A DNA stretch of 64,000 bases from a virus. Taxonomy: Duplodnaviria; Caudoviricetes. The DNA lies in IMG/VR virus record IMGVR_UViG_3300013121_000038, positions 38,312 through 102,311 of that record, one strand, 5' to 3'. Below are positions 35,583 to 54,945 of this stretch, one piece after another. The stretch's first letter is position 1. Every line of letters starts with the position of its first letter. The position numbers and the translations under genes are program-made. The notes under the pieces were generated by a model. The model saw only the letters and a list, made by a program, of their open reading frames with translations, was not told the origin of the DNA and did no database searches.

Positions 35583-35666
35583 GGTTCTTGAATCCTTCCA
35601 TCTAAGAAGAGCACATTCTCTTCTTCTGTTTTCTTATCCCACAGCCAGACAGCGATTTGCTGCGCC

Positions 35667-36113
35667 TCAGTTCTTCATCGAGGAGCCCAGGTTCATCATC
35701 GACAGCATCGGGTCTCCCAGGAATGTGTCGATGTTCTTCACCATCTCCTTCGAGTCGACGCCTGCGTCGAGCAAAGCATCAAGCTCTACCTTGTACGTCT
35801 GAGTGGCGATGATGGTGCAGAGCTTCGGGCAGCACGTGATGTAGTCCTCCTTCATCATCGTGCCATCCTGGCTGATTGAGATCTTCACGACTTGGCAGAT
35901 GTTCCGTACCTCACGGTGCGCCCGGTAGATCTCCAGTGCCACACCCTCTTGCTTCTTCATGCCCGTCGCCAGGTTGGCAGCGGACAGCACCATCTTCACG
36001 GACTCCAACACCTTCTGCATCCCCTCGATCTTGGACGCCTTCGTGTTGTGTGGTGACGACAGGTACGACTGGCACTCGTTCTTCGCCTTCTGCACAGCGT
36101 CGTCGAGAAACAT
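35667..36113 (-). CDS. Hypothetical protein
   Basis: GGAGG RBS before ATG 36113. Confidence 0.65.
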   Translation of the reverse strand: MFLDDAVQKAKNECQSYLSSPHNTKASKIEGMQKVLESVKMVLSAANLATGMKKQEGVALEIYRAHREVRNICQVVKISISQDGTMMKEDYITCCPKLCTIIATQTYKVELDALLDAGVDSKEMVKNIDTFLGDPMLSMMNLGSSMKN

Positions 36114-36127
36114 GTCGCCTCCCACAA

Positions 36128-36256
36128 GCTAAGAAACGGCGCCAGTTAACCAGGCTGGCGCCGGAGCAGAGAGTTCCCTCTTCACGGCAGTCCGGGAGGA
36201 ATGCGCCGGCGGCATGGCGCGCCGGTTTTTGCGCTCAGAGTTACGGTCCCTGCTCA
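36128..36256 (-). ncRNA. Candidate small RNA (~125 nt)
   Basis: Bounded by the promoter motif (36262-36289) and a hairpin-TTCTTAGC terminator (36128-36163); GAGCAGGG/CUCUGCUC closing stem; no RBS-led ORF. Confidence 0.5.
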
Positions 36257-36380
36257 CCTGTCTTATCCCTTTCCCAAGAGCATTGTTGCATACGAGCTAA
36301 AAGAAGCCGAAGGGGAATGTGCCCCATCGGCCTCCGGGCCCGGAACCGCACTTGGGAGCGCGGTGACGACCAGACCCAAG

Positions 36381-36497
36381 CTACTTGAAGAGACGGTGCC
36401 TCTCGGACCAGACGCACCACACCGCCCAGACTCCGACGCACAACCAGAAGAAAGCCATCATGGTAATCCTCCCGTATCTTCTTGTGCCCTTTTTCAT
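36381..36497 (-). CDS. Short membrane peptide
   Basis: MKKGTRRYGRITMMAFFWLCVGVWAVWCVW... Confidence 0.35.
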   Translation of the reverse strand: MKKGTRRYGRITMMAFFWLCVGVWAVWCVWSERHRLFK

Positions 36498-36574
36498 GGT
36501 CGAATTGCTAAGAGTGAGAGAGCCATACGGCCCCGACGTCCCCCTCGCATGAGGACGTCGGGGCTGCACAAGCC

Positions 36575-37144
36575 CTACTCGGTCTTGGGCTTGTCCGGGT
36601 TGCCAGGCGGCAGCAGAGCCGCCCTGAAGGACGGGGCGATGAGCCGGTTGGCCTGCTGCTGCGCCCTCGGCAGCCACTCCTTGTAGGGCTTGGCCTCGGC
36701 GGTGTCGGGGATGGCGTCCTGGTCGATCGACTCGATGATCTCGGAGAACTTCTTCGACGCGCTGGCGATACGCGCCGCCTGCGTGGCAGCAGGCCCCTTG
36801 GTCATGTCGAGATCGTCGACGGTGGCGCGCATGCCGAGGCCGACCTTCGAGATGATGCGTCGGCCGTACTTCTTGAGCAGGATGTTGCGCGCCGTGCTCT
36901 TCAGCTTCTTCTTGCAGAACTCCACATCATCGGAGTCGGCACGCGGCCGCGTCCGCAGCCCCATCGCGCTGTAGGCGATGTCGACGAGGTTCTTGAACGC
37001 GTAGGGGTCGTGCCGTGCTGCCCAGTCGAGGTAGTGCGCGATCGCCTCGGCGAGGTTCAGGTCCGCTGGCTTCTTGTAGTCCGGCGCAGTGGACCGCCGC
37101 TTCGTGGTCTCGTTCTTGGTCACTGAAGGCTCCATCCTATCCAC
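36575..37144 (-). CDS. Hypothetical protein
   Basis: 189 aa basic protein with coding-like codon bias. Confidence 0.7.
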   Translation of the reverse strand: MDRMEPSVTKNETTKRRSTAPDYKKPADLNLAEAIAHYLDWAARHDPYAFKNLVDIAYSAMGLRTRPRADSDDVEFCKKKLKSTARNILLKKYGRRIISKVGLGMRATVDDLDMTKGPAATQAARIASASKKFSEIIESIDQDAIPDTAEAKPYKEWLPRAQQQANRLIAPSFRAALLPPGNPDKPKTE

Positions 37145-38042
37145 CCTTCTGGAGTTGAGAGTTGTACCGCTCCAAGGTCAAGTAGCTGTGCATAACCGAC
37201 TCGAAGAGCTCGGAGGTGTCTCCGTGCGTCTTGTCCGGATGATACTCGTTGGCCAGACGCCACTTGTTCCTCTTGGCCAGGTGCAGGTCCGCCGGCTTCC
37301 CGTTCGGCGGCGGGTCCATCCCCAGCGTGGAACAAGCCTTCTCGACCTCGTCCTTCGACACCGACTCCTGCTTGTCCATCTTCGCCACATGCTCGTCGGT
37401 CTCCATCGCCTTGGCGAGGCTGTCTCTGAAGTCGCGAGCCACGATGCGGAGCATCACCAGCAACTCGCGTTCCAGTGTCGTGTGTACGACCGGATCGGAG
37501 TATGCCAGCTCCTTCTTCAGGAACTTCTCGGTGCGCGCCTTGATGTCGGCCCAGAAGATCGCGCTCTCGGTCGCCAGCTTCTCAGGAGACTTCCTAGGGC
37601 TTCTCCTCTTGCGAGTGAGGTGCTTCTGCCCTGCGATGCGGTACGGAACCCCGGACCTCGACATCCTGATGTACGGGAGCTGGTCGTACTCCTTCAGCGC
37701 CTCGTTCAAGACGTCAGCGACCTGGCGGTTGGTGCTGAGTGCCTTGATCCGAGCCTTCATGATCATGCTGGCTATGGATGAAGTGGTCATCTTCTTCTCG
37801 TCGAGTCTCCTCCAGAACTCTTCTACCCCATCACCGATAGAGAGCAGCATGCTGCGAACACGGAAGTCACGCTGAGCCACGCCAGGGATGTTCGCAGCGA
37901 ACCACTTCTCTCCAGAGAGTGGACCGTTCCATCCGCTGCTGACAACCTTGACCCACAGCTCGTGCTCCAACATCGCCCGCTCTCGCTGAGTGGCGTAGTC
38001 GGCAAGAGCGATGTGCTCGGCGATCAACTCTTGCAGTGTCAT
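37137..38042 (-). CDS. Protein with a C-terminal J-domain (DnaJ-like)
   Basis: ACSTLGM...KRNKWRLANEYHPDK...FESVMHSY-x2-L; HPD motif intact. Confidence 0.75.
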   Translation of the reverse strand: MTLQELIAEHIALADYATQRERAMLEHELWVKVVSSGWNGPLSGEKWFAANIPGVAQRDFRVRSMLLSIGDGVEEFWRRLDEKKMTTSSIASMIMKARIKALSTNRQVADVLNEALKEYDQLPYIRMSRSGVPYRIAGQKHLTRKRRSPRKSPEKLATESAIFWADIKARTEKFLKKELAYSDPVVHTTLERELLVMLRIVARDFRDSLAKAMETDEHVAKMDKQESVSKDEVEKACSTLGMDPPPNGKPADLHLAKRNKWRLANEYHPDKTHGDTSELFESVMHSYLTLERYNSQLQKGG

Positions 38043-38662
38043 GAGAGCTTCCTCACGATGTCTTCGAGCTTGCTTAGCAGCTCGGTCTGACGCTTCTCGA
38101 AACCCTCGAACATCTTCTTGATTTCGTCTACTCCTTCCCTCGTGTAAATGGTGGACTGCAAGGCGGTGTGCATCGTCTCGATGAGCTCCCCCAACAGGTA
38201 GTTCGTCTGTGCGAGGGAGTTCTTGTCGGCTGGAGGCGGCGGCACTTCGCCAGGCTTCGTTGGGATGTACGGCGCTGGGGCGAGGAACAACGTCTGCTGC
38301 CCGTTCTCTGGCTGAGTCTGGGCTGACGTCTTGGGTTGTGCCGGGGGGTCGACTGGCATCTGTGGCGGCACGTTCGACGGCCACACGAAGTCAGCGATGC
38401 TCTCGTCGCTCTCCAAGATGTCATCCAGCCTGTCGGCATCAGCTAAAACGTATTCAGCGGGCTTACCGACTTCTCCCGTCTCAGCCACCTTGCGAGCAGC
38501 GCCACACGCAACGAGGCTTCTGAGGACCCGGCGTTGGAAGACTCGATTGCCTTCCTCTTCCGGCATCCCCATGAAGAGCTCGTTGCGTGTGGCGACCTTG
38601 CCCTTGCGCAGCGTACGGAGAGCGCGACGGACGAATCCAAGACGCGCTGCCTCGTTCGCCAT
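38039..38662 (-). CDS. Putative winged-helix DNA-binding protein
   Basis: TRNELF...RRVLRSLV-x2-G-x3-KV...AEYVL pattern; C-terminal coiled coil. Confidence 0.5.
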   Translation of the reverse strand: MANEAARLGFVRRALRTLRKGKVATRNELFMGMPEEEGNRVFQRRVLRSLVACGAARKVAETGEVGKPAEYVLADADRLDDILESDESIADFVWPSNVPPQMPVDPPAQPKTSAQTQPENGQQTLFLAPAPYIPTKPGEVPPPPADKNSLAQTNYLLGELIETMHTALQSTIYTREGVDEIKKMFEGFEKRQTELLSKLEDIVRKLS

Positions 38663-38673
38663 GTGTCAGCCTC

Positions 38674-39183
38674 CTAGATCGCCGGCGGGGTGTACTGCTG
38701 CTTGATCATGAGCATGACGAACTTCTTCACCTTCACGATGCCCGCCTTGCCGTTCTTCTCCATGAACTGGTAGCGGCGGGCGATCTCGTCGCGCTGGCTC
38801 GGCACCTTCACCGCCTCGTGCGCGAACACCACCAACCGCTTGGTGGACGTGCCGACGTTGACGATGACGGTCTCGAAGACCGGGAACAGCTCCAGCGGCT
38901 GGTCCTTGATGAGCGCCGACTTCACGCTCCTCATGCGAGAGCGGAGCTTGGCGATCTTCGCGTTCTCGTACGCGTCGTTCTTGTCGACCTTCGCGATCGA
39001 CTCGAACAGCTTGGGGTAGCTCTTCCCCTTGTCTGCCTCCACCGCGTCCTTCATCTCCTGCGGTGTGGCGTCGACGTGCGCCGTCTTGAGCTTCGCCACC
39101 AACGTGGCGATCTCCAACCCGTAGTCCGTCGGTGCTTTCCCACGGATGTGGTCGAGCACGTACTTTGTCGTGATCTGTGCCAT
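38674..39183 (-). CDS. Hypothetical protein
   Basis: 169 aa, Lys-rich. Confidence 0.7.
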   Translation of the reverse strand: MAQITTKYVLDHIRGKAPTDYGLEIATLVAKLKTAHVDATPQEMKDAVEADKGKSYPKLFESIAKVDKNDAYENAKIAKLRSRMRSVKSALIKDQPLELFPVFETVIVNVGTSTKRLVVFAHEAVKVPSQRDEIARRYQFMEKNGKAGIVKVKKFVMLMIKQQYTPPAI

Positions 39184-39246
39184 AGCACTAAGAAGGCGCC
39201 CGAGCAGTCTCGGGCGCCTCCTCCTTTCAAGAGGGTTGGGTGTGCT

Positions 39247-39783
39247 CTACAGCTTGCCGCTGAAGACGCCAGCCACGCGGCGCGCCTCGAAGCCGTCCTC
39301 GAAGACGCTGAGCTTGTCGAGCCCCATCGACTTCATGAGCTCGACCATCTTCTGGCGCTCCTCGACGTCGAACTCCATGTTGACGTCGAGGATGAACACG
39401 GCCTTGTTCTTCTTGGCCATCTCCATGCGCCGGCGGATGTAGCCGGCCAGCTCCTCGGGCAGCGCCAACGCCACCTGGGGCGGCTGCTCCTTCGGCGCCC
39501 TCACCAGCCGCGCCGCCTGCCTGGTCGTGCTCTTGGCCTTCTTCTTCTCGGCCTTGACCGCCGAGTTGTACTGCGCCGCCCGGCTCTTCATCTGGCTGTT
39601 GGTGAGCCCGAGGTCGCGCGCCACCTTGGAGCACGTCTTCGAGTCCATGCCGCCCTTGAACTGCTTCCTCACCTCGGCCAGTGCCTGCTTCTTCGACTGG
39701 CCCAGCTTGAGCAGCTCGGTGTAGAGAGCGATCTTCTTCGCAGCCTTTTCCACCAGCTTCTTGTTGTTGCTCGGCATTCGCAT
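39247..39783 (-). CDS. Highly basic hypothetical protein, possibly DNA-binding
   Basis: Lys/Ala-rich; has its own promoter motif and terminator. Confidence 0.7.
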   Translation of the reverse strand: MRMPSNNKKLVEKAAKKIALYTELLKLGQSKKQALAEVRKQFKGGMDSKTCSKVARDLGLTNSQMKSRAAQYNSAVKAEKKKAKSTTRQAARLVRAPKEQPPQVALALPEELAGYIRRRMEMAKKNKAVFILDVNMEFDVEERQKMVELMKSMGLDKLSVFEDGFEARRVAGVFSGKL

Positions 39784-39889
39784 CCTCCCGGAATGGAAGA
39801 CTGAAAGACTCAGCCTTCACGTCTGTGGTCTTATCCCCTGACAGGGATGCCATTTGCCACGCGTGAGGGGACCTCTTAGACTGCGTTCC

Positions 39890-40180
39890 ATGAGCTCTGT
39901 CATGATGGCATCTGGCGACCCCAAGCCGTTCGGCTGGATCGCGGACCAGGTCTGGCACACCTCCAACAACCCATGGCTGCCGGCCGAGCCACAGCCATGG
40001 TATGTGCCGCAGACGATCGTGGAGCCTCAACCAGCACTGCCACCCATCGTCGTGATGCCCACCCAGGAGCTGGACGCTCTCAAGAAGCGTCTGGACGAGC
40101 TGGAGAAGGCCGTGAAGAAGCTCAGCCCGGTGAAGGAAGACGGCCCGGAGTGCGAGCCTGGTCGAGTGGTCGAGCTCTAG
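39890..40180 (+). CDS. Hypothetical protein (opposite strand to neighbours)
   Basis: Pro/Trp-rich N-terminus followed by a coiled coil. Confidence 0.5.
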   Translation: MSSVMMASGDPKPFGWIADQVWHTSNNPWLPAEPQPWYVPQTIVEPQPALPPIVVMPTQELDALKKRLDELEKAVKKLSPVKEDGPECEPGRVVEL

Positions 40181-40384
40181 GGCTAAGAAAGAGGCGGGGC
40201 GCTGTACAAGCCGCCCCGCCCGGTCTACTCCACTCGCTCTTTCTCTAGGTCGGAGAGGCTTCTCACCTAGTGACGTGAACGCAGCCTGAGAGCCTCCCCT
40301 ATCGCGTACGGTGTCAGAGGTTCTGGGCTTCAACCACCGAGCTTGTCGCTCAGCATCGCATCACTCCTCTCGTACCTCGTTCTA

Positions 40385-40522
40385 TCACCGCTCCTGCCTT
40401 GGCGGCTGGATGAGCCTCATCCGCTCGCGTAGCGCCGAGACCCCTAGCACGGCGGCGATGCCCATCAACAGCCCAGGCAGAACCCACTTCTCAGCGATGA
40501 TCTCGATCTTGATACCGAACAT
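40385..40522 (-). CDS. Short membrane peptide
   Basis: MFGIKIEIIAEKWVLPGLLMGIAAVLGVSAL... Confidence 0.45.
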   Translation of the reverse strand: MFGIKIEIIAEKWVLPGLLMGIAAVLGVSALRERMRLIQPPRQER

Positions 40523-40590
40523 GACAACTCGCTTTCTACGTCTCCCTGCTCAACCGCCAGAGGAGACGTAGTGCCTCAGCCGGCGCATGA

Positions 40591-40827
40591 TCACCTCCTT
40601 TCGTTAGGATCCCAGCCGTAGCCGTGCTCGGTCGCGCCGATGAACTCGCCCTCGTGGTTGACTGGGCGCCAGCTCCAGAAGTTGCTGAGCCCGTGCTCGC
40701 CCCAGTACTGCCCGCTGGTGATCTTCACCATGCGGCCATCGGGATGCTTGACGATGTCGCCCACCTTGAAGGGCGCACCACCAAGCACCTCTTCCGTCAT
40801 CTGCTTCACCCAGTTGGCGACTGGCAT
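40591..40827 (-). CDS. Hypothetical protein
   Basis: AGGAGG RBS; FKVGDIVKHPDGR SH3-like start. Confidence 0.65.
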   Translation of the reverse strand: MPVANWVKQMTEEVLGGAPFKVGDIVKHPDGRMVKITSGQYWGEHGLSNFWSWRPVNHEGEFIGATEHGYGWDPNERR

Positions 40828-40835
40828 GCGCCCTC

Positions 40836-41096
40836 CTAGGACATCTTGAAGCGACGCCACTTCATGTCCTCGCCGTCGTCGAGGAAGATGTGGAAGCCGT
40901 TGTGCTCGGTGTAGACGATGAGCCAGCCCTCGTACTTCTCGATCTCCGCGTTGTGGAAAGTGCAGGACGTGAGGTCGTGGTGCGTGACCGTGACGAGCCA
41001 CTTGAAGTTGCGCTCCGACGACATCTTGGAGTCCACTCCATAGGCGTGTTCCATGGCATGCCTGAATGGACTCACAGGCTTCTGTCTTCGCATCAC
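40836..41096 (-). CDS. Hypothetical protein
   Basis: Packed in the operon; start uncertain. Confidence 0.55.
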   Translation of the reverse strand: MMRRQKPVSPFRHAMEHAYGVDSKMSSERNFKWLVTVTHHDLTSCTFHNAEIEKYEGWLIVYTEHNGFHIFLDDGEDMKWRRFKMS

Positions 41097-41326
41097 TTGC
41101 CTCTCTTGCAGCGACAGTGGCCCTTCTTCGCCAGGTGATCATGGGCCATGTCGAGCTTGGTTGAGAACTTCTCCAAGTTCTCCAGCGTCTGCCTCTGCGA
41201 CAGCTCGTTGGAGATGTACTGGCCCTCGGTCGGTCCGAAGCCACGAGAGCACGTGAGAGTGATGAGCTGCTTGGCTTCCTCCTCATCCCCGACTGAGAAG
41301 ACGGGGAGGAAGCCCTTATCCGGCAC
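41093..41326 (-). CDS. Hypothetical protein
   Basis: Packed in the operon. Confidence 0.55.
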   Translation of the reverse strand: MPDKGFLPVFSVGDEEEAKQLITLTCSRGFGPTEGQYISNELSQRQTLENLEKFSTKLDMAHDHLAKKGHCRCKRGK

Positions 41327-41393
41327 ACGGCCGAATCGGACGACGACAGCTCAAAAGATCTTGATGGGCCCGTTGTCGAGCCGCTCACCGATC

Positions 41394-41618
41394 CTAGTGC
41401 CGATCATGGCTGATACGCTTTCCGTCTCTGCGCTCCTGCTGTCGCAGATACTTCTTGAGCCCGCTCTTGGCCCGAGCAGCACCTCGATGGCCGTTGGCGA
41501 AGTCGTTGCCGATCTGGGCTTGCACCACCGAGCTCGACAGCTTCCTGGTTCTGCGCAACATGGACGGATCTCTGAAAGAACCAGGATCCTTGTACCCACG
41601 TCTGTGGTTTGTCTTCAT
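41394..41618 (-). CDS. Small basic hypothetical protein
   Basis: AAGGAG RBS; Arg/Lys-rich. Confidence 0.6.
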   Translation of the reverse strand: MKTNHRRGYKDPGSFRDPSMLRRTRKLSSSVVQAQIGNDFANGHRGAARAKSGLKKYLRQQERRDGKRISHDRH

Positions 41619-41621
41619 GCT

Positions 41622-42002
41622 TCACTCCTTCCAGTACTTCGGCTTGCCTTCGATGAGTGCATCGAGGCGTTGGCGAGGGTCCCCCACGTCGCCGCCGTAG
41701 GAGACCACCACGGAGTCCAGCGCCTTGTTGATGTCTGGCTCGGAAGCCAGCGCTGCTTGCAGCTTGTCGAGTGCCTCACGGGCACGCTCTGGCTTGTACG
41801 TTCAAAGCTCAAGGAGGATGTGCGGCGGGCCGCACTCACCAGCCTCGAACTTCACCACGTTGTCGTCATGCTGGTACTGCTCCACTTGAATGCGGAGCTG
41901 GCCGAGCATATAGCCATAGACGACCAAGCACACCTTGCCGTCTTCGCTAGCCAGGAGGAGCTTCTGCGCCCCGTACGTCGGAGCTCTCTCTGTGAACTTC
42001 AT
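41622..42002 (-). pseudogene. ORF interrupted by one in-frame TGA at 41802-41804
   Basis: Reads ...ILLEL*TYKPERAREALDKL...KYWKE*; coding-like codons continue for 59 codons with no early restart. Confidence 0.5.
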
Positions 42003-42429
42003 CTGGCTTCTTCTCCTCGTCCTTGTGCTTGAGCTCGCTCGGGTGGTACTGGAGCACGCGCTGGAACTTCAGCGACCCCTCCTCGTTGTCGAACTTGATG
42101 AAGTGGATGGCGCGAGCCGGGTAGCCGCACTCGGCGCAGTAGCCTTCTCCGTGTGCCAGCCCCCAGGTGAAGGTGCAGCCGAGGATGTACGCCTCCACCA
42201 TGTCCTTGCCGACGAGACGCTCACCACAGCCGATGCACTTGTGGTCCACCATGGGGGTGAAGTGGTGGTAGTAGACGTCGAGCTCTGCGTTCAACTTCGC
42301 ACACAGCTCGATGGCCTCAGGAGCGGTCTCCCCATCCTTCACCGTCACGCCGATGCCAACGCTTGCCACAGTGGCATGTGGCAGGTTCTTCGCCCTCAGC
42401 TCGTTGAGCTTCTCCAGGGTCATCTTCAT
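41947..42429 (-). CDS. Zn-finger hypothetical protein
   Basis: CIGCG...FTWGLAHGEGYCAECGYPAR. Confidence 0.65.
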   Translation of the reverse strand: MKMTLEKLNELRAKNLPHATVASVGIGVTVKDGETAPEAIELCAKLNAELDVYYHHFTPMVDHKCIGCGERLVGKDMVEAYILGCTFTWGLAHGEGYCAECGYPARAIHFIKFDNEEGSLKFQRVLQYHPSELKHKDEEKKPDEVHRESSDVRGAEAPPG

Positions 42430-42653
42430 AGCTTCTTCTCCACACCTTCGGGTGGCATCCAGATGATGCAACCGCAGCGTCCCTCCCTGATGACGATGTC
42501 CGTTGAGCAGCAGTAGACGCGACACGCCTCGTTCTTGCTGTCGTGCTTCTTGATGCTGTCGGTGATGATGAAGATCAGCGCCAGGACGACGATGGTCGCC
42601 ATGAAGGCGAAGAGGGCAGAGTAGCTGTCCTTGAAGACTGGTCTCCAGATCAT
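42426..42653 (-). CDS. Membrane-anchored Cys-rich protein
   Basis: One transmembrane helix followed by C-x3-CC...CGC. Confidence 0.6.
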   Translation of the reverse strand: MIWRPVFKDSYSALFAFMATIVVLALIFIITDSIKKHDSKNEACRVYCCSTDIVIREGRCGCIIWMPPEGVEKKL

Positions 42654-42853
42654 GGCTTCTTGCCCTTCCTGAGCAGCTTGTCGAGCTCCATCGTTGCCTT
42701 GGCCAGCTTGGTGTACGCGTCGACGTCCACCGCCACGTAGTTCTTCGTCCCGTAGGAGCCGTGAACGCCTGACACCACGACGTTCACGGCGGCATGGTGG
42801 ACGTCGGCGAGGAGCTTGGTCTGTCTCATGACTCTCTTCCCTAGGAGTTCCAT
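42650..42853 (-). CDS. Hypothetical protein
   Basis: GGAGG RBS. Confidence 0.6.
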   Translation of the reverse strand: MELLGKRVMRQTKLLADVHHAAVNVVVSGVHGSYGTKNYVAVDVDAYTKLAKATMELDKLLRKGKKP

Positions 42854-42861
42854 GCTGCCTC

Positions 42862-44610: not shown

Positions 44611-44611
44611 G

Positions 44612-45557: not shown

Positions 45558-45569
45558 GGTCTTCTCCTC

Positions 45570-46645: not shown

Positions 46646-46711
46646 GTGTGTTCCCGGTCTAGAGGCAGCAGGAGTGCTGCTCACGCTTCTTATGCCCGGC
46701 TCGCCCAAGTT

Positions 46712-47372: not shown

Positions 47373-47445
47373 TCGGTCCATGGGCTAAGCAAGCCCCGGA
47401 GGGCTGGCCCCCGGCCCTTGAGCCGGGAAGACGGTCCAGAACCTG

Positions 47446-47727
47446 CTACTGCCAGGTCTGGCACTTGGTGGACTGCATCTTGTTCAAGCACGCCACGCCG
47501 ACCTGGATGCCCTCCTTCTCGTAGTACGCCCGGCACTTCTCGAAGTTGGTCTGGCGGGGGTCGCAGTTGGCCTTGGTCTGGGCATCCGACCAGTCCATGT
47601 GGACCTTGGCGCAGCCGACGGAGACCATCTCCTTCTCCTGGGGCGTCAGGCGGGGGTCGCAGGCCAGGGTGGTGGAAGGGGTGAGAGAGCAGACAGCGAG
47701 AACCAGGGTGATCAGGATGGTCTTCAT
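47446..47727 (-). CDS. Secreted Cys-rich protein
   Basis: Signal peptide MKTILITLVLAVCS...; six further Cys; CDPR twice. Confidence 0.7.
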   Translation of the reverse strand: MKTILITLVLAVCSLTPSTTLACDPRLTPQEKEMVSVGCAKVHMDWSDAQTKANCDPRQTNFEKCRAYYEKEGIQVGVACLNKMQSTKCQTWQ

Positions 47728-47952
47728 GATGTCCTCCCGGACGTTGTGACGGAGGAAGTTCCCCGTCAGAGCCTTATGCCGGAGGGTGGTCTGGAATTGC
47801 TTCTCCCGACCCCTTGCGCCCAAATTTTGGGGGTACATACGAGGCCGGCCTCGGAAACGCTGCCTACAGGATCATGGGCTAAAAAAGCCAGGCCCGGGGA
47901 GCTCGGTCTGGCTTTCCTGGGTGGCCGCCCAGGACGGTCGGGGCTGGTGCCC

Positions 47953-48210
47953 CTACTTCTTCGCCCGCTGCGCCTGGATGGCTCTGAGGTCCCGGATGGC
48001 GTTCTCCAGGGCGACGACCATGCCTTCGTCGTCCAGAGCCGCCTGGCCCACCGAGACCCGGGAGAAGACGTTCCCGAAGCTGTTCTGGACCACCAGGACC
48101 GAGTGCATGCCGAACTTCATCTTCCACCTGTGGAGCATGGAAGAGATGACGACCTTCTCGGCCTCCATGATCCGCTTCTCGACTTCCACCTGCTCGCGCG
48201 ACTTGGCCAT
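47953..48210 (-). CDS. Hypothetical protein
   Basis: Cassette gene. Confidence 0.65.
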   Translation of the reverse strand: MAKSREQVEVEKRIMEAEKVVISSMLHRWKMKFGMHSVLVVQNSFGNVFSRVSVGQAALDDEGMVVALENAIRDLRAIQAQRAKK

Positions 48211-48221
48211 GTGGGCGGGTC

Positions 48222-48467
48222 CTAGGTGCTGGAGGTCGTCGTCTCCAGGAGGTAGTCGAACTCCCTCCCGACCTTCTTCACCACGACCGTCTGCTTGATG
48301 CCGCAGGTCTCGGTCATCAAGTTGGCCCGCCCCTGGTACGGCTTGGAGCCGCTGTTGCCGGTGGCCTCCTTCTCCAGGTACTCGATGCTGTTGCCGCCAA
48401 CCGACTTGGTGAGCAGAGATGCCGCAGTTGCCCTCGTGATCTTCTTCTCGCTGATCGCCTTCGCCAT
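48222..48467 (-). CDS. Hypothetical protein
   Basis: GGAG RBS; cassette gene. Confidence 0.65.
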   Translation of the reverse strand: MAKAISEKKITRATAASLLTKSVGGNSIEYLEKEATGNSGSKPYQGRANLMTETCGIKQTVVVKKVGREFDYLLETTTSST

Positions 48468-48567
48468 GTGCTTCTCCAGTGAAGCTGCCTGAGTGCCGCT
48501 TCATCTCCTTATGGCTAAGAAGCACGGAGGGATTGCCCCCGTGCCCGGCTCCGGAGAGCCAGGACGT

Positions 48568-49056
48568 CTACCAGTAGTCGTTGACCAGCTCTTCCAGGTT
48601 GATGCCCTGGCTGACGATGGCGCGGTACCCGTCCCTCAGGGTCGCCTGGGCCTGCCGCGCCTGGGAGAGCTTCTCCTTGGCGAGCCGGAGGCTGCTCCTG
48701 GAGGTCCTGATCTCCTCGCACCACGCCCAGAGCAAGAAGCAGCACTTCTCGGCGAGCTGCTGCCGGTACGCCAGAACCTCGTCGGCGTCGAAGGGGTTCT
48801 TGGAGACGTCCACCGTCACCAGCTTGTTGAGTCGCTGGAGGTGGCGGACGACGTCCCGGAAGCTCTCGACCACGTGCGCGGCGCAGTTGAGGGAGATGTT
48901 CCTCCCCTCGCAGTACTTCGCCACCCGCTGCACCAGGACCATGGCGTTCTCGATGGTTCGCTCGTTGCCGACGAACCGATCGAAGCCCTTGATGTCCTGG
49001 GCCTTGAAATCCACGTGCTTCTGCTTCATCGCCTCGTACAGCGAGAAAGTCGCCAT
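48568..49056 (-). CDS. Hypothetical helical protein
   Basis: GGGAGG RBS; cassette gene. Confidence 0.7.
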   Translation of the reverse strand: MATFSLYEAMKQKHVDFKAQDIKGFDRFVGNERTIENAMVLVQRVAKYCEGRNISLNCAAHVVESFRDVVRHLQRLNKLVTVDVSKNPFDADEVLAYRQQLAEKCCFLLWAWCEEIRTSRSSLRLAKEKLSQARQAQATLRDGYRAIVSQGINLEELVNDYW

Positions 49057-49180
49057 GTGTACTGCCTCCCGTGAAGCCGGTTGGATTCCGGCCTATGGGC
49101 TTATGGCCTAAGACACCGGGGGATTGCCCCGGGCCGGCCTCGGAAGGCCGGAAGAAGACGTCCTGCGCCGTCTTCTCTTG

Positions 49181-49345
49181 CTACTGCGGGACTCGCGTCC
49201 CGTCCCAGGAGATGTTCCTGGGGATGGTTCCGTTCTTCTGGAGCTTCTTGTAGCAGTCCGGGCAGAGCTTCACCCAGGTGCAGACCAGCCAGATGTTCCT
49301 GACCTCCCGGTCGTTGGTGCAGCCGAAGCAGAGCCCGGAGGCCAT
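49181..49345 (-). CDS. Small Zn-finger protein (54 aa)
   Basis: CFGC...LCPDC; TGATG overlap with the upstream gene. Confidence 0.6.
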   Translation of the reverse strand: MASGLCFGCTNDREVRNIWLVCTWVKLCPDCYKKLQKNGTIPRNISWDGTRVPQ

Positions 49346-49527
49346 CAGGACCTCTGCATGGGCGGCCAGCGCCGGTAGCTGTACACGTGGAAGCCGAGGC
49401 CCATGAAGAGCAGCGGGATGCCGATGACCCGGAGCCCGGTGACGGTGAAGATGCCGGCCCCGGTGTAGCAGGCCATGACCACCAGAAGGCAGAGCCAGAG
49501 GTCGAACCCCAACTTCTTGGACCTCAC
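49345..49527 (-). CDS. Two-helix membrane protein
   Basis: Two hydrophobic segments. Confidence 0.6.
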   Translation of the reverse strand: MRSKKLGFDLWLCLLVVMACYTGAGIFTVTGLRVIGIPLLFMGLGFHVYSYRRWPPMQRS

Positions 49528-49937
49528 GACTTCCTCCCGAACCGCCTCAGCACCGACTGGCCCTTGGCCGGACCCTTGGACCGCTTCGCCCGCCTGGGCG
49601 TCACGTCCCGCTGGAAGCGGCCACCCTGGACCATGTCGACCATGTCGCCGCGCGCCGCCAGCACCATGCCGAGGAAGGTGTCGGCGCGCTTCTGGGAGGG
49701 GTCGGTACCCCTGCCCAGCATCTCGCGGAGGGACAACGCCGTGAAGCGCGTCAGCACCTCCTCGACGACGACCTTCACCACCTCCGCCGTCTTGGCCGAC
49801 GGGTGGGTGGCATCCACCTCGCCCCGCAGCTTGTCCACCACGTCCATCAACGCCTGGGCCAACTCGTGGTCCGGCAGCGACGCCAAGAGAGCGTCAACCG
49901 GACCAGGACACTCAGGGTTGCCGCAACGATCGCACAT
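49524..49937 (-). CDS. Hypothetical protein
   Basis: MCDRCG-x3-C N-terminus; GGAGGAG RBS. Confidence 0.65.
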   Translation of the reverse strand: MCDRCGNPECPGPVDALLASLPDHELAQALMDVVDKLRGEVDATHPSAKTAEVVKVVVEEVLTRFTALSLREMLGRGTDPSQKRADTFLGMVLAARGDMVDMVQGGRFQRDVTPRRAKRSKGPAKGQSVLRRFGRKS

Positions 49938-49940
49938 CGT

Positions 49941-50315
49941 TCACTCCTCCCGTTCGGTGTGATAGGGGCACGCGAGGCCATCTCGCCCAGTACCCCCGAA
50001 GCCCTTCACGTTCCGCCCGCACTCCGGGCAGACGCCACGACGAAGCGCCTCCCTCTCCATGATCTCGTCGCAAGAGAGAAGCCGGTTCTCGATGTAGCCA
50101 CTTCCCAGTGCAGCTCGCAGCTCCCGGCGCGCCTGCGCCATCCTCATGCGGCGCGCCTTCTTCTGCCACCAGCCCACGATGGGCCAGCGGATGAACCCGG
50201 GAACGAGACCCCAGAGCTCTTCCAGCATCGCCTGCGACAAGAGCCCGATGAGCCCCAGCGCAGCCGTCATGACCACCCCCAACACCAACGCCACCAGAAC
50301 CAACTCAAGCCACAT
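49941..50315 (-). CDS. Membrane protein with a C-terminal Zn-finger
   Basis: Transmembrane helix plus CPECG...CPYH. Confidence 0.65.
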   Translation of the reverse strand: MWLELVLVALVLGVVMTAALGLIGLLSQAMLEELWGLVPGFIRWPIVGWWQKKARRMRMAQARRELRAALGSGYIENRLLSCDEIMEREALRRGVCPECGRNVKGFGGTGRDGLACPYHTEREE

Positions 50316-50498
50316 GGTCTTCTCCCGTGACGGGCTTGTTTGCCCGCTACAGGCTTATGACGTAGCCGACCCGAGGGTTGCCTGTCTGTCCCAGGCACAC
50401 AGGGTAGGACATAGAAATTTCGTCATCACGGGCCATGGGCTAAGACTCGGAGGTGGAACTCCGAGCTCCCCGCAGGCCGGCGGGGGCGGTCCCCCAAC

Positions 50499-50732
50499 CT
50501 AGGAGGCCGTCTGGATGTAGACGATGTCCTTCCTGAGCCGCAGGTCGTGGGCCTCCTCGAAGGTCTTGCCGATGAGCTCGCTGAAGTCGAAGGAGATCTC
50601 ATCGTCGTAGTAGAAGATCGAGTCCTTCTCACCCTCGGCCGTCTCCATGTCGACCCGGACGTTGCCCGGACCCGTGAAGCACTGACCTTCGGGCGGATAG
50701 TTGAAGGTGACGCTGACGATCTTGTCAGCCAT
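50499..50732 (-). CDS. Hypothetical protein
   Basis: Single-gene cassette. Confidence 0.7.
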   Translation of the reverse strand: MADKIVSVTFNYPPEGQCFTGPGNVRVDMETAEGEKDSIFYYDDEISFDFSELIGKTFEEAHDLRLRKDIVYIQTAS

Positions 50733-50876
50733 GGTGATGCCTCCCGTAGGAAGAGAATGGCTCTTCCCTGTTGTCTCCTTATGACGGGTCCAAAGAAGGC
50801 CTTTCCTAGGGCCAAGCTAAAAAAGCGGCCGGACCCGGTGTTCTGGGCCCAGCCGCCTTCCCCCACCACGGAGCTT

Positions 50877-51320
50877 CTACATCTGGTGCTGGGCCGAGCG
50901 CTGCTCGCCGCCGGCCCCGTTGACCTGGGGGGCGGCCTTGGCGTTGGACAGCTCCTGCTCGGCCCGGAACAGCTTCAGGCCGGCCACGGCCCGCTTGGTC
51001 TCGGCCTCGATCCTGGCCGTCTCCGCCTCGACGGCCATCGCCGGCGTGAGCAGCTCCAGCTTGCGGAGCTCGGCCTGGGCCTGGGCCATCTCCACGCTGG
51101 CGCGCATCTTCAGCACGTCGGTGGAGGCCTTGGCGATCTCGCCGGCGGTGCGCGCCTTGATGAGGAGCGCCTCGCCGTGGGCCTTCATCAGGTCCTGGAA
51201 CGCCGGGCTGGAGGTGACGGTGGTGAAGACGGCGGCGACGGCCTCGCCGAACTTCGACCACCCAGACTTCTTCTTCTTCGTCTTCTTGCCGCCCTCGTCC
51301 TTCGTCTCGTTCTCGGCCAT
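50877..51320 (-). CDS. Coiled-coil hypothetical protein
   Basis: GGAGG RBS; single-gene cassette. Confidence 0.7.
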   Translation of the reverse strand: MAENETKDEGGKKTKKKKSGWSKFGEAVAAVFTTVTSSPAFQDLMKAHGEALLIKARTAGEIAKASTDVLKMRASVEMAQAQAELRKLELLTPAMAVEAETARIEAETKRAVAGLKLFRAEQELSNAKAAPQVNGAGGEQRSAQHQM

Positions 51321-51459
51321 ATCGATCCTCCCGGATCGGCGGAGCAGCGTCGAAAGACGCATCTTTCCGCTACACCCTTATCCCAGGGAGATCGCAGGAA
51401 TTGCCCTAAAACAGGGGGTTTCAGCTCCCCTGGGCGGCTCTCCGGCCGCCACGGTGTTT

Positions 51460-51651
51460 CTACTTCCGCCGCTCCGGCATGCGCCGGAAGCGGTTCATCG
51501 CCAGCTTGAAGCGCCGCTCCGTCGGAGACGGCACCTCTTCCTGCTCCCAGACGTCCTTCGTGTCCGGGAGCCGGCAGTGCGCCGGGAAGGTCAGGTTGCT
51601 GTCCCCAGGCACCATGATGACGTCTTCCAACTGGGCCATCCGGTACATCAT
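51460..51651 (-). CDS. Hypothetical protein
   Basis: ATGA overlap; GGAGG RBS. Confidence 0.6.
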   Translation of the reverse strand: MMYRMAQLEDVIMVPGDSNLTFPAHCRLPDTKDVWEQEEVPSPTERRFKLAMNRFRRMPERRK

Positions 51652-51902
51652 GGCCTCCGGAACTTGAACATCATCATCTTCAGGCCCTGGTGCGTGAGGA
51701 TGGCCCGGTTCTGGAGCTCCTTCGGCAGCCGGTCCAGGTGCCGGATCATGGCGGCGGCTTCGTCGAGCATGGCGAAGGCCTCCTTCACCTGGGTCGGGGT
51801 CAGGGCGCTCTCCTCGGAAAAGGAGATGAACTTCAGCTCCAACCTCTCCAGCGCCTCTTCGGCGAGCGTGGAGTTCAACGCCTTCTTTGCAGCGATCGTC
51901 AT
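51648..51902 (-). CDS. Hypothetical protein
   Basis: GGGAGG RBS. Confidence 0.65.
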   Translation of the reverse strand: MTIAAKKALNSTLAEEALERLELKFISFSEESALTPTQVKEAFAMLDEAAAMIRHLDRLPKELQNRAILTHQGLKMMMFKFRRP

Positions 51903-52028
51903 TGTGTTCCTCCCGTTTTGGAAGAAGAGCTGCTCTTCCTGTTCTCATCTTATGCCACAGACAGACACGGTCTTGAGCTAAGCACGAGCCCCGGAGGGCT
52001 CGGCCCAGTCTCGGAGGACTGGGTTGTG

Positions 52029-52787
52029 CTACTTGGCGCGGGCCGCCAGGCGGGCCTTCTTCTTGGCGACCTCCTTGCCCTTCCGGATGATCTCCCGGAG
52101 CCGCTCGGTCTTGGTGAGCCGCTTCGTCGGCTTCACCTCCTTCGCCGGCTCCGGCGGGTCCACCGGCACGGACGGCTCGTAGACCTGCACCGGCCGCACC
52201 TTGCCGTAGCGGAAGCCCCGCTCCAGGGCCTGGACGATGTTCACCGTCTCGTTCTTCCACTTGGCCTTGTCCACCATCGTCGGCCGGATGGGGTCGCCCG
52301 GGTGGAAGGTGTAGACGACCTCCTTCCCGTCCTCCGGCCCGAGGATGATGACGGAGAAGTCCACGATGAGCTGGTCCTCCAGCTTCAGCGGGAGCTCGGC
52401 CATCAGCCCGCCTCCGTAGGTGCCGGCGGTGCCCTTCGGGTCCACCAGCTTGACCATGGTCATGCTGGGGAACTGGGCCAGGTCGACGACGCCGAGCATG
52501 CCCGGGATGGGCGCCTTGAAGGCGGTGCAGCCCTTCAGGACGGCGGGGTGCTCGTACGGCTCCCAGTTCGCCTCGATGAGGCTCTGGACCGTCTGCGTCT
52601 CGTCGAAGGTGCTGCCGGACGAGTCGGGGCCGGCGGTGCGGCTCTTCAGCGTCTCGGCGATGTACTTCTCGTCGGACCTGGCGAACGCCAGGCCGATCCT
52701 CTTCTGGTGCTCGGTCTGCTCCGGCTTCTTCTCCTCCGGCTTCTCCTCCTGCGTCTGCTCCACGGTCGTCGTCTCGGTCTCAGCCAC
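52029..52787 (-). CDS. Hypothetical protein
   Basis: GTG start after GGGAGG; VILGPEDG-x-EVVYTFHPG motif. Confidence 0.7.
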   Translation of the reverse strand: MAETETTTVEQTQEEKPEEKKPEQTEHQKRIGLAFARSDEKYIAETLKSRTAGPDSSGSTFDETQTVQSLIEANWEPYEHPAVLKGCTAFKAPIPGMLGVVDLAQFPSMTMVKLVDPKGTAGTYGGGLMAELPLKLEDQLIVDFSVIILGPEDGKEVVYTFHPGDPIRPTMVDKAKWKNETVNIVQALERGFRYGKVRPVQVYEPSVPVDPPEPAKEVKPTKRLTKTERLREIIRKGKEVAKKKARLAARAK

Positions 52788-52989
52788 AAGTCCTCCCGGA
52801 CTCTTCTGCGAATGAGTGAACAGGAGGGGACTGCTCCCCTCCAGGACTGCGCGGCTCGCATGTCCGCACAGACGGAGCGCTCGTGGCTCCTCTGAACTTC
52901 TTATCCCTTCGGGAAGACGGACTTTGCTCCATTGGTGGTCTTGACTTTCACCTCTCGAAACGGCATCTCTCATCCAGCCCGGAGGATTC

Positions 52990-53304
52990 ATGCATCTCAC
53001 CATCCGAATCGACCGTCTCCCTGGCGGCCGCCTCAAGGGCTTCTTCGAGGAGCTGCCTGGGATCTTCTACACGTCAGACGACGAGTCCGCTCTCTCCGAG
53101 CGTCTCGGTCGGCTGGCGCACGCTCTCAGCTCGCCGCACGTCAAGATTCGCGAGATCAAGCCGGACGGCGACGTCGTGCTGGCCCTGGTACGGGAAGAGG
53201 AGGACGAGGAAGACGAGGAGTCTCCCACGTCTTTTCTGACCCTGACCGAGGCCGTCTTCATGGCCAGGCAGCAGAAGTCCTACGAGTTCATGGCTTCTTG
53301 CTAA
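52990..53304 (+). CDS. HicB-like-fold protein (tentative)
   Basis: IRIDRLPGG-x-LKGFFEELPGIF...ESALSERL resembles HicB N-terminal domains; GGAGG RBS; own terminator. Confidence 0.45.
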   Translation: MHLTIRIDRLPGGRLKGFFEELPGIFYTSDDESALSERLGRLAHALSSPHVKIREIKPDGDVVLALVREEEDEEDEESPTSFLTLTEAVFMARQQKSYEFMASC

Positions 53305-53323
53305 GGAAGCCGATCTTGTAGGC

Positions 53324-53364
53324 GGCCCCCACCACCCTGCGCGGGGATGGTGGGGGCCTTTTTT
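53324..53364 (+). terminator. Intrinsic terminator
   Basis: GGCCCCCACCA...TGGTGGGGGCC followed by TTTTTT. Confidence 0.75.
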
Positions 53365-53561
53365 CAGTTCTCCGGCGGCGGGCGGAACACGTCCCCACCG
53401 AAGACGCCTGGGTCTCGCGCCGGCGTGACGATGTTCGGCAACGCCTTCGCGAGCCCGCTCGCCTCCATCAGCCTTCTCGCCACCCGTCGCCGACGCCACC
53501 TGGGCACGATGAAGTACGCAGCCAGCGTGATGATGAAGACGGTGCCGATCAGATCCTCCAT
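53364..53561 (-). CDS. Small membrane protein
   Basis: N-terminal transmembrane helix, then Arg-rich. Confidence 0.6.
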   Translation of the reverse strand: MEDLIGTVFIITLAAYFIVPRWRRRRVARRLMEASGLAKALPNIVTPARDPGVFGGDVFRPPPEN

Positions 53562-53662
53562 TCGAGCCTCCCTTCGAGAAAGGGTGAAAGCCTACCGCAG
53601 CTAAAGAAGAAGCGGGTACCCGATGTTCTGGGTACCCGCCTCCTGCCGGGGTTCGCTGCTTG

Positions 53663-53941
53663 CTACGACGCCGCCTTGGTCTCCGCCGGCTTGGTCTCGG
53701 CCGGCTTGGTCTCGGCCGCCTTCTTCGCCTCCTTGCGGCTCTTGATGTTGGCCTTGGCGACGTCGATGCGCTTCTTCTTGTCCTCGTCGGACATGGTGGC
53801 GAGGACGTCCTTGCCGACGAGGATGGAGCTGCGGTTGGTGCCGTAGCGGGACAGGGCGTAGCCGGCGGCCATGCTGGCGGCGGCGGTAGCGACGATCTTC
53901 ACCACGGGACGCTTCAGGAACATCCAGAACGCGCTCATCAT
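53663..53941 (-). CDS. Hypothetical protein with AETKP repeats
   Basis: Cassette gene; three C-terminal AETK units. Confidence 0.7.
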   Translation of the reverse strand: MMSAFWMFLKRPVVKIVATAAASMAAGYALSRYGTNRSSILVGKDVLATMSDEDKKKRIDVAKANIKSRKEAKKAAETKPAETKPAETKAAS

Positions 53942-54183
53942 GATAGTCCTCCCGGACCAGACGGGGTTGGGTTTGGGTGCATCTTCCCGTCAACCCCTTA
54001 TGGCTGGATGAGGGTCTAAATTGCCCTCTGGGAGGCCTTTTGGAGGGTTTTACCCCGTGTACGGGCTAAAAAAGCACCCCCGGGCAGGACTGCCGGGGGT
54101 GCCACGGGCGCCTATGAATTACACCCAGACCGATTCCGGGTGCGCCGGGAGGCGGCGCCCACTGCAAAGGGTTGGAGGGGCTC

Positions 54184-54396
54184 CTACTTCACGACGGAGC
54201 GGATAAAAGCCATGTCTTCCATGGCCTCCACCCGCACGTGCTCTTCGTGCAGGAGCATGTCCTCCAGAGTCTCGGCTGCCTTGGACGCCCCCAAGTCCTT
54301 CAGGGCGTCCAAGATTCCCCTCTGGCGAGGGGTGATGGGCGGAGAGTTGGCCTTGGACTCCAGCCTTCTCATTGCCTGCGCGAGCTCCGGGGACAT
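54184..54396 (-). CDS. Hypothetical protein
   Basis: AGGAGG RBS. Confidence 0.65.
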   Translation of the reverse strand: MSPELAQAMRRLESKANSPPITPRQRGILDALKDLGASKAAETLEDMLLHEEHVRVEAMEDMAFIRSVVK

Positions 54397-54404
54397 GTTT
54401 CCTC

Positions 54405-54824
54405 CTAGTTCGGTCGCTTCGAGGCCCCAGCGGACTGGGACCACGCCGAGAACTGGGTCTCGGGCTTGGGGTTCTTGACCAGCGAGGAGAGCTCGACCAG
54501 CGTCACGAACCAGATCGCGTCTTCCGCGCTCTTGTACGCTGCCATCGAGACCTCGCTGGCCATCTTCTTGGCCTGCTTGCTCAGCTCATCGAAGGCCCGG
54601 ACCATGCTCCGGATCTTCGTCAGCCGCTCGATGACGGCCCCCGCCTCGGTGAGCGGGCGCATCGACAGCTCTCGAACCGCTGCCTCCACGTCCTTCAAGG
54701 TGGTGGCGACGTTCAGCAGGCCGTCCGTGGACAGGCCGTACTGCCCGATCTTGTTCTTCAGCGCCTTGATGTCAGCGTCGATCGTGAAAACCAGCTTCTC
54801 GATCTCGAAACGCGGATTAGCCAT
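54405..54824 (-). CDS. Helical hypothetical protein
   Basis: GGGAGG RBS; promoter motif upstream. Confidence 0.7.
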   Translation of the reverse strand: MANPRFEIEKLVFTIDADIKALKNKIGQYGLSTDGLLNVATTLKDVEAAVRELSMRPLTEAGAVIERLTKIRSMVRAFDELSKQAKKMASEVSMAAYKSAEDAIWFVTLVELSSLVKNPKPETQFSAWSQSAGASKRPN

Positions 54825-54945
54825 GTGGTGTTCCTCCCGTTATGGAAAGAGGTACTCTTTCCACTTGCGGTCTTATGGCCAAAAACCGGGCTGACTTGCT
54901 CACCCAGACATGATGAAACGGAGCCTGCCTGGGTGGCAAGTAGCA

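Follow-up and report, generated by a model that had tools for sequence, protein, structure and literature searches.

The question raised by this locus is whether a short element that recurs on one strand of a viral contig is a promoter and, if so, which RNA polymerase reads it. The stretch of DNA analysed here (the window, 64,000 nt) is the last 64 kb of the 102,311-bp viral contig IMGVR_UViG_3300013121_000038, which is rated about 55% complete, the whole phage genome being ~190 kb, and which is contained in public sequencing runs of activated sludge. The element, GCAA-N19-ATAAG, was noticed in a first-pass annotation of the window, which proposed it to be a non-canonical promoter of a host-takeover set of genes. 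We conclude with high confidence that the ATAAG sites are promoters. As for their reader, we lean towards a sigma factor of the phage, probably acting on a phage polymerase, once the host polymerase has expressed that phage polymerase.

In the window there are 11 exact copies of GCAA-N19-ATAAG, confined to the minus strand and to the range from 35633 to 54899, against a mean of 0.07 and a maximum of 2 expected by chance (dinucleotide-preserving shuffles). When the pattern was written as GCAA-N16-GNNATAAG and one mismatch was allowed, it gave 15 matches, again all on the minus strand, against 0.99 expected. The 15 copies considered below are the 11 exact ones, 3 with one mismatch and 1 variant with a 20-nt spacer; the last, which is the fourth near-exact copy, was recovered via its core GCCATAAG, whereas one further one-mismatch match, at 36481-36508, is doubtful. 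A search of the window with the GNNATAAG core alone gave 16 sites. Of these, 15 are on the minus strand and within the same range; the other, a GGGATAAG on the plus strand (26613-26620), lacks an upstream box and coincides in part with a ribosome site. Three bases 5' of ATAAG there is an invariant G, though this position was outside the search pattern, and the proximal element reads G-[GCT]-[GC]-ATAAG in 15/15 copies. The spacer between the boxes holds almost no information, and the -35-like box is GCAA, with GAAA, TCAA and ACAA as variants. Every one of the 15 copies is intergenic; the start codon that follows, on the minus strand and with a ribosome site of the GGAGG type, is 38-148 nt away (median about 46). 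On the virion arm, which is encoded by the plus strand, there are no copies, nor are there any past 54899 in the window. The first-pass annotation, which had described 11 exact and 4 near-exact non-coding copies on the minus strand, shortly upstream of start codons, with this proximal element and a free spacer of fixed length, and none on the virion arm or past 55 kb, proved accurate throughout.

It had also read the motif as the mark of a host-takeover regulon, and here only a part of the claim stands. The motif scan that it had suggested, carried out on the whole contig, gave five further copies in the part upstream of the window, all on the minus strand, which head the helicase operon, DnaB and three small non-structural units. 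Because helicase, DnaB and primase genes carry it too, the motif is not limited to a takeover block, and it marks non-structural genes in general. Two other candidate signals were considered and rejected: CCTACAC has a strand-specific look and was taken for a second promoter word, but most of its copies lie inside genes and reflect codon usage; ATAAG is rare outside promoters, yet other A/T-rich words of the same composition are rare too, and avoidance is therefore not claimed.

To assess the geometry of the element, we collected 70 sites of this contig and of two complete relatives, with GNNATAAG on the motif strand as the sole criterion of selection. At a distance of exactly 16 nt before GNNATAAG, the successive bases were G at 44/70, C at 48/70, A at 58/70 and A at 62/70 sites, and because this upstream box appears when only the downstream box selects the sites, it is no artefact of the search. 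A purine stands 7 nt past the last G of ATAAG at 58/70 sites, and the base after CAA-N16-GNNATAA, when left free, is G in 38/38. Between the two strands, the motif is distributed as 21:1, 34:1 and 15:0 in three genomes. If the last G is set as -7, the remaining bases become G(-14), A(-11), T(-10), A(-9) and A(-8). As judged from the sequence, the ATAAG sites have the geometry of sigma70-family promoters, namely a -35-like box, an extended -10-like box and a downstream purine.

Extended -10 promoters (TGnTATAAT, with or without TTGACA) and the phage motif have in common a pair of boxes set about 18 bp apart (counted between hexamer positions) by a spacer of fixed length, the five bases G(-14) to A(-8) just listed, the downstream purine and the placement before genes and behind terminators. 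They differ at -7, where the phage motif has an invariant G and not T, the principal contact of primary sigmas (PMC7598289), and the primary-sigma consensus is therefore not matched. Further differences are found at -12, which is C or G here and T in some relatives (GGTATAAG throughout), in the -35 box, which is GCAA or GAAA and lacks TTG, and in the reader, presumed to be a phage sigma and not the host primary sigma. The consensus of sigma28 (FliA) promoters is TAAA-N15-GCCGATAA, with a CGA core in the -10 box. By our own arithmetic against this textbook consensus, AA and ATAA are 19 nt apart in both classes; both also have an upstream box ending in AA and a downstream box with G-C-C...ATAA, and the phage sigma described below is of group-3 size, with regions 2, 3 and 4, some of its members weakly matching the FliA/WhiG model. 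However, the phage motif has no CGA core, has GCAA instead of TAAA and carries an invariant trailing G, and the clade's sigma fits no sigma subfamily model, so that the motif falls outside the sigma28 class and agrees with it only in spacing. T7-type promoters are contiguous blocks of about 20 nt, read by a single-subunit polymerase of unrelated fold; the phage motif, being bipartite with a free spacer, is not one of them. The first-pass annotation was thus right to set the class apart from the sigma70 consensus, given G(-7) and a -35 box without TTG, while the merely loose likeness to bacterial promoters that it allowed turned out to be closer, with extended -10 geometry and a sigma28-like distance from AA to ATAA.

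The surroundings of the sites (Table 1) are those of transcription units. At most sites a hairpin of the 5' untranslated region (UTR) begins 5-10 nt past ATAAG, the folding energy of these regions having a mean z-score of -1.2 over 21 sites, with several below -2.4. Terminator hairpins reach -16.5 to -31 kcal/mol (42 nt analysed per site), and in two places the GCAA box lies inside or adjoins the preceding terminator. The order within a unit is promoter, 5' hairpin, GGAGG ribosome site, one to few small genes, and a hairpin followed by a T-run terminator; the small-gene block is laid out as many short, separately promoted transcription units. The unusual [CT]TTAG tail of the T-run may serve as a signal for termination or RNA processing that is peculiar to this system. 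Of the TTAGC words on the contig, 27 are on the minus strand and 4 on the plus strand. In two sludge metatranscriptome runs, short contigs (150-386 nt) fall within genes downstream of ATAAG sites, and one of them ends at 53981, 9 nt short of a predicted start, which is a weak hint only, as such contigs show neither start, strand nor level and may stem from DNA carry-over; parts of the window that no such contig covers are not informative. The piece with the highest depth (23) among those from RNA libraries on the window is a 386-nt insert at 40222-40607, found between Illumina adapter sequence, with no ATAAG site nearby.

Table 1. Predicted promoters, other promoter-like sites and terminator-like sites in the window (window coordinates).
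Feature	Form	Position (strand)	Start codon	Remarks
ATAAG promoter, exact	GCAA-N16-GCCATAAG	54872..54899 (-)	54824	Start codon 47 nt downstream; 5' UTR hairpin follows
ATAAG promoter, exact	GCAA-N16-GCCATAAG	53997..54024 (-)	53941	Predicted transcription start near 53990
ATAAG promoter, exact	GCAA-N16-GGGATAAG	52900..52927 (-)	52787	Start codon 112 nt downstream
ATAAG promoter, near-exact	TCAA-N16-GGCATAAG	51949..51976 (-)	51902	
ATAAG promoter, exact	GCAA-N16-GGGATAAG	51377..51404 (-)	51320	
ATAAG promoter, near-exact	GAAA-N16-GTCATAAG	50778..50805 (-)	50732	
ATAAG promoter, exact	GCAA-N16-GTCATAAG	50354..50381 (-)	50315	
ATAAG promoter, exact	GCAA-N16-GCCATAAG	49100..49127 (-)	49056	GCAA within hairpin loop of preceding terminator
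ATAAG promoter, variant	GCAA-N20-ATAAG, core GCCATAAG	48508..48536 (-)	48467	Overlaps terminator
ATAAG promoter, exact	GCAA-N16-GGCATAAG	47773..47800 (-)	47727 (probable)	93-amino-acid product
ATAAG promoter, near-exact	TCAA-N16-GGCATAAG	46689..46716 (-)	46645	
ATAAG promoter, exact	GCAA-N16-GTGATAAG	46152..46179 (-)	46109	
ATAAG promoter, exact	GCAA-N16-GGGATAAG	39830..39857 (-)	39777	Back to back with plus-strand sigma70-like site
ATAAG promoter, exact	GCAA-N16-GGGATAAG	36262..36289 (-)	36113	Start codon 148 nt downstream
ATAAG promoter, exact	GCAA-N16-GGGATAAG	35633..35660 (-)	35582	Open reading frame 35052-35582
Doubtful copy	GCAA-N16-GGCACAAG	36481..36508 (-)		ACAAG replaces ATAAG; may be chance match
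Canonical sigma70-like site	TTGCCA-N17-TAGACT	39854..39882 (+)		Opposite orientation; -35 region common with 39830-39857 promoter
Terminator-like sites, about 16	Strong hairpin, then T-run ending [CT]TTAG(C)	Span 36129..54110 (-)		
Terminator TTAG starts, first eight		36129, 36297, 39188, 40183, 45865, 46186, 47385, 47879 (-)		
Terminator TTAG starts, other eight		48515, 49108, 50440, 50817, 51406, 51978, 53601, 54066 (-)		

The first-pass annotation had advised a search of the genome for sigma factor or polymerase genes, which was successful on the contig for the polymerase. A fused beta-beta' RNA polymerase of 2106 amino acids is encoded at contig 18236-24556 (+), 13.8 kb before the window, with the beta domains followed by beta' (Rpb2_6 5.5e-55, Rpb1_2 2e-28). 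It retains the catalytic motif NADFDGD; the alignment of its beta' part with bacterial beta' (about 1e-110) extends through the clamp-helix region. One polymerase is present in each of two complete genomes examined. Its homologs, of about 2100 amino acids, number thousands and are found on contigs up to about 220 kb; in IMG/VR, 241 loci encode relatives, recovered by an alignment query (a single-protein scan of viral contigs gave none). No alpha-subunit homolog was found in ten genomes searched, and the T7-type polymerase domain PF00940 was not found on the contig in a search that had no positive control. In some relatives the polymerase gene holds inteins (precomputed Pfam matches to LAGLIDADG_3, Hom_end and Intein_splicing; 2450-3390 amino acids).

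These relatives made it possible to follow the motif through the clade, where its strand-specific occurrence is kept down to 33-37% polymerase identity. In five relatives of 51-67% identity, exact copies are distributed over the two strands as 9:0, 2:0, 0:3, 4:0 and 0:2, the reversed control giving 0. For AA-N16-GNNATAAG in distant complete genomes (37-44% identity) the corresponding counts are 24:1, 27:5, 8:0, 9:6 and 8:0, with reversed-pattern controls near 0, and many further fragments show the same strand bias. Within 460 nt upstream of the polymerase gene, GNNATAAG pointing away from it is present in 56/80 relatives, compared to 1/80 on the polymerase strand and 2-5/80 in coding controls. 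The closest complete relative shares five orthologous promoter positions with this contig, and an alignment of the intergenic region upstream of the polymerase gene in three genomes shows the boxes to be conserved. As the G+C content of the relatives' loci varies from 0.36 to 0.67, their hosts are probably diverse. It is the position, orientation and geometry of the ATAAG sites, the terminators that flank them and this conservation that lead us to regard them as promoters.

The polymerase gene itself is almost never found behind an ATAAG site (1/80 relatives). In a consensus scan, TTGCCA-N17-TATCCT was found 96 nt before its start codon, at contig 18112-18140 (+), and TTGCCA-N18-TACACT before the neighbouring plus-strand operon. 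Canonical TTGCCA-type sites on the contig are those at 9254-9283 (+) and 18112-18140 (+) and the one in the window listed in Table 1, and sites of this kind (TTGCCA/TTGACG-N17-18-TAnnCT) lie only on the strand opposite the ATAAG sites. A canonical promoter is present ahead of the polymerase gene in 3/3 genomes, with equivalent positions in both complete relatives; a loose sigma70-like pattern is found upstream of this gene in 27/80 relatives against 0-9/80 in controls, its matches clustering 114-128 nt before the protein match. Read on the other strand, each TTGCCA box is TGGCAA, within which lies the -35 box of an ATAAG promoter that points the opposite way; the two classes are thus arranged back to back, with a common -35 region. 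About 30 nt before the divergent ATAAG promoter of the polymerase region, three genomes have an identical block, CGAGGATA (minus-strand reading; contig 18120-18135), which in plus-strand reading is the TATCCT -10 box of the polymerase promoter. These genomes hold a few predicted canonical promoters with T(-7) and many predicted ATAAG promoters with G(-7), on opposite strands.

The search for a sigma factor gave a less direct result. Neither Sigma70_r2 nor r4_2 domains were found on the contig, which is incomplete, and the expectation of the first-pass annotation was borne out in this respect only by the relatives: a family of 260-310 amino acids is present in 14/15 of them and in 9/9 complete genomes, and is absent only from this contig. 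Contig 1-73 kb corresponds to the closest complete genome from 45.6 kb, back through the origin, to 192 kb, and the sigma gene of that genome, at 88 kb, is in the part missing from the contig. When the profile of the family was compared with solved structures, it matched SigA, RpoS, SigF and FliA chains (best 1.5e-10, SigA), the matches to SigF and another sigma chain extending over almost the full length; one member matches Pfam Sigma70_r3 (7.8e-11) and r4 (7e-4). The NCBIfam models RpoD, SigBFG and FliA match 7-10 of 18 members, weakly and with no clear subfamily. On the strength of these profile matches, the protein is a divergent member of the sigma70 family. Two weak Sigma70_r4 matches in the closest relatives were rejected, as they are helix-turn-helix proteins of the XRE type and not sigmas. 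Beside the universal sigma, two distant relatives have a second, small one (about 195 amino acids, with clear Sigma70_r2 and r4; G007:C1:157921-158433 (-) and G010:C1:176097-176585 (-)), which is absent from the closest relatives.

We also predicted the complex of a relative's polymerase (residues 1000-1460) with its sigma; the score was 0.86, whereas the best of 3 controls had 0.09. This mark is attained by 58/80 solved complexes and by 2/110 mismatched pairs, and the runs agreed in at least 60% of contacts, the partner having a predicted local distance difference test (pLDDT) value of at least 74. In the model, polymerase residues 1206-1275 (the clamp-helix region) contact sigma residues 97-115. 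At the N-terminus of the clade's sigma there is a conserved helix, A-L-D-W-V-L-x-K-L-S-A-A (e.g. L096:7649-8536 (-), L105:10434-11297 (+)). It loosely resembles the tag F-x-D-E-L-x-K-I-A, with both acidic positions different, which stands at the N-termini of several virion-arm proteins (e.g. contig 10494, 14942, 30289) and is not evident on the polymerase; if the helix were such a capsid-address tag, the sigma might be packaged.

From the motif, its positions, its conservation in the clade and the presence of polymerase and sigma genes, all of them observed, we infer the reading enzyme, the timing and the transcription start as follows. The host polymerase would transcribe the phage polymerase gene from the TTGCCA-N17-TATCCT promoter. 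A sigma70-family factor of the phage, most likely on the single-chain beta-beta' polymerase, would then read the ATAAG promoters, which G(-7) and the unusual -35 box would keep apart from host sigma70 promoters, and transcription is predicted to start at the purine 7 nt past the last G. This T7-like order is likely because the polymerase gene lies behind a canonical and not an ATAAG promoter. A reader supplied by the phage is suggested by the deviations at -7 and -35, by conservation across varied base composition, by the universal presence of the sigma and the polymerase, and by the existence of separate host-type promoters. A stronger version of this proposal, which we put forward only tentatively and would place slightly below an even chance, is that of an orthogonal initiation system in this clade of ~200-kb phages: an alpha-less single-chain core with a dedicated sigma and a private GCAA-N16-GNNATAAG code with G(-7), unusable by the host holoenzyme, the whole being switched on by the host polymerase from one canonical promoter.

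Several observations weigh against the proposal that a phage sigma reads the sites on the phage polymerase. The starts at the ATAAG sites are themselves predicted, and the assignment of a sigma to this particular phage relies on synteny with its relatives. Sigma with beta' is a solved, textbook pair, and for this reason the complex prediction shows that the form of the interface is retained, not that the two proteins bind; it may even have passed only because complexes of this kind are solved. The phage sigma, whose closest likeness is to primary and group 2-3 sigmas, could equally read the canonical TTGCCA-type class, in which case the ATAAG sites would be left to another factor. By analogy with SPO1 and T4, it could act on the host core. 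The polymerase and sigma genes lie on the structural-gene strand, which also fits a virion-carried enzyme, and the stop codon of the polymerase gene directly adjoins the ATG of a spike-like gene, for which Phage_base_V was matched. Finally, ATAAG sites are lacking in the vicinity of many genes of the minus strand (40-46 kb, 55-64 kb).

Of the other explanations, one keeps the phage sigma as the reader but places it on the host core RNA polymerase, as with SPO1 gp28 and T4 gp55, the phage beta-beta' enzyme serving other genes, e.g. late ones. We consider this unlikely, yet deserving of serious attention. Phage sigmas which redirect the host core are a known precedent, and a review presumes that jumbo phages work with the host core if their sigma homologs are recognisable (PMC7598289). 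The phage sigma retains the ordinary region 2-4 architecture, and with no alpha found, a stand-alone phage holoenzyme would be unusual. On the other hand, all complete genomes of the clade contain both the sigma and the fused polymerase, with one polymerase and one universal sigma per genome, and the predicted interface between sigma and clamp helices is far above controls, though maybe only through its likeness to solved complexes.

If, instead, the host polymerase with a host sigma (primary or sigma28-type) read the ATAAG sites, and the phage enzyme the canonical-looking or late promoters, the plain bacterial geometry and the sigma28-like 19 nt from AA to ATAA would find an easy explanation, but a -7 position that is G in 38/38, a -35 box without TTG and the lack of CGA would not. 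The small-gene block does resemble an early region, and early regions are read by the host enzyme in many phages. Yet the motif is kept over a range of G+C content from 0.36 to 0.67, probably in different hosts, and the separate canonical sigma70-like promoters of the same genomes look different. This explanation therefore appears distinctly unlikely to us.

It is improbable, in our opinion, that the polymerase and sigma are packaged and injected, which would make the ATAAG sites an immediate-early class independent of the host enzyme, as in phiKZ or N4. The conserved canonical promoter before the polymerase gene suggests host-driven expression after injection, and this has to be set against the location of that gene among structural genes of the same strand, next to the spike-like gene. 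The sigma gene lies opposite the dominant motif strand in 12/12 relatives with both recorded, as such a scheme would have it; as for the capsid-address tag, the resemblance of the sigma helix to it is weak, and the polymerase has none that is evident.

That the ATAAG sites are no promoters at all but operators of a repressor or activator, or recombination or packaging sites, can hardly be right, since, even if bipartite sites of fixed spacing can also bind dimeric regulators, the boxes are neither direct nor inverted repeats, their orientation always follows the downstream gene, they stand behind terminators and before 5' UTR hairpins and ribosome sites, and their geometry, with a purine at the predicted start, fits sigma-type promoters.

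A promoter class that is unlike the host consensus and is used for one class of genes is also found in the SPO1 (gp28, gp33/34) and T4 (gp55) cascades; the difference is that this phage brings in addition a bacterial-type catalytic core, so that sigma and core may both be viral. With the T7 cascade it shares the placement of the phage-enzyme gene behind a host-type promoter. The polymerases of the phiKZ/AR9 type consist of 4-5 polypeptides, in virion and non-virion sets with no recognisable sigma, and their promoters are single short AT-rich or TATG-type blocks (PMC7598289). As here, these are large phages with beta and beta' homologs and with a motif before non-structural operons that can be found from sequence; the present phage differs in having one fused polypeptide that is nearer bacterial enzymes, a sigma in its relatives and a two-box promoter, and does not belong to that class. 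Jumbo phages known to encode RNA polymerases have no sigma homologs, and phages with sigma homologs have no polymerases (PMC7598289; also PMC7824862). Metagenomic RNA-polymerase-encoding Caudovirales (mReC), some of them >200 kb, have beta and beta' homologs (Weinheimer and Aylward 2020, PMC7481178), and our contig probably belongs to this assemblage. Beta and beta' homologs and a tail-sheath domain are present on it; the presumed capsid protein has no Pfam match (in mReC, the T4-type capsid family PF07068). In that paper (PMC7481178) the words promoter and sigma are absent, and a fusion is mentioned only for crAssphage. We found no description in the literature of the motif, nor of a fused polymerase together with a sigma in phages.

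As for the remaining genes, those of the window were called from codon statistics. Contig 9-73 kb holds virion genes on the plus strand, including the large terminase, a tail-sheath domain and a spike-like protein; at the left end of the contig, replication genes (primase, DnaB, helicase) lie on the minus strand, and from 74 kb to the end there is a long series of small minus-strand genes. The ten largest ATAAG-promoted genes in the window have no Pfam matches, and the small-gene block is hypervariable, with almost no homologs in two related genomes compared. The 93-amino-acid product encoded at 47446-47727 (-), behind the promoter at 47773, starts with MKTILITLVLAVCS, resembling a lipoprotein signal peptide. 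Between 55473 and 64000 (-) there are about 26 tightly packed small genes with hardly any intergenic space and no ATAAG site; their promoter must lie past the contig end or be of another class. No tRNA genes were found, nor any Rfam families in the window from 34 to 64 kb. Among cultured phages there are no close relatives at the DNA level, the best at the protein level being the Vibrio phages D69, D181 and D148, with about 29.5% identity.

In a review (PMC7598289), large phages fall into two groups, those with a split multisubunit polymerase and no sigma and those with sigma factors that act on the host core. The clade appears to combine a fused bacterial-type core, a sigma and a clear promoter code. 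If the orthogonal initiation system outlined above is real, it would constitute the first pair of sigma and core of bacterial type from a virus, and a minimal holoenzyme of that type occurring in nature. Should the assignment hold, such a compact two-protein holoenzyme would be suitable for studying how a sigma reads -7 and how a core is assembled in the absence of alpha, and may also be of use for orthogonal expression. For hundreds of genomes of uncultured phages (sludge, soil, water) it would become possible to annotate transcription units, and the finding would bear on the debated origin of viral multisubunit polymerases.

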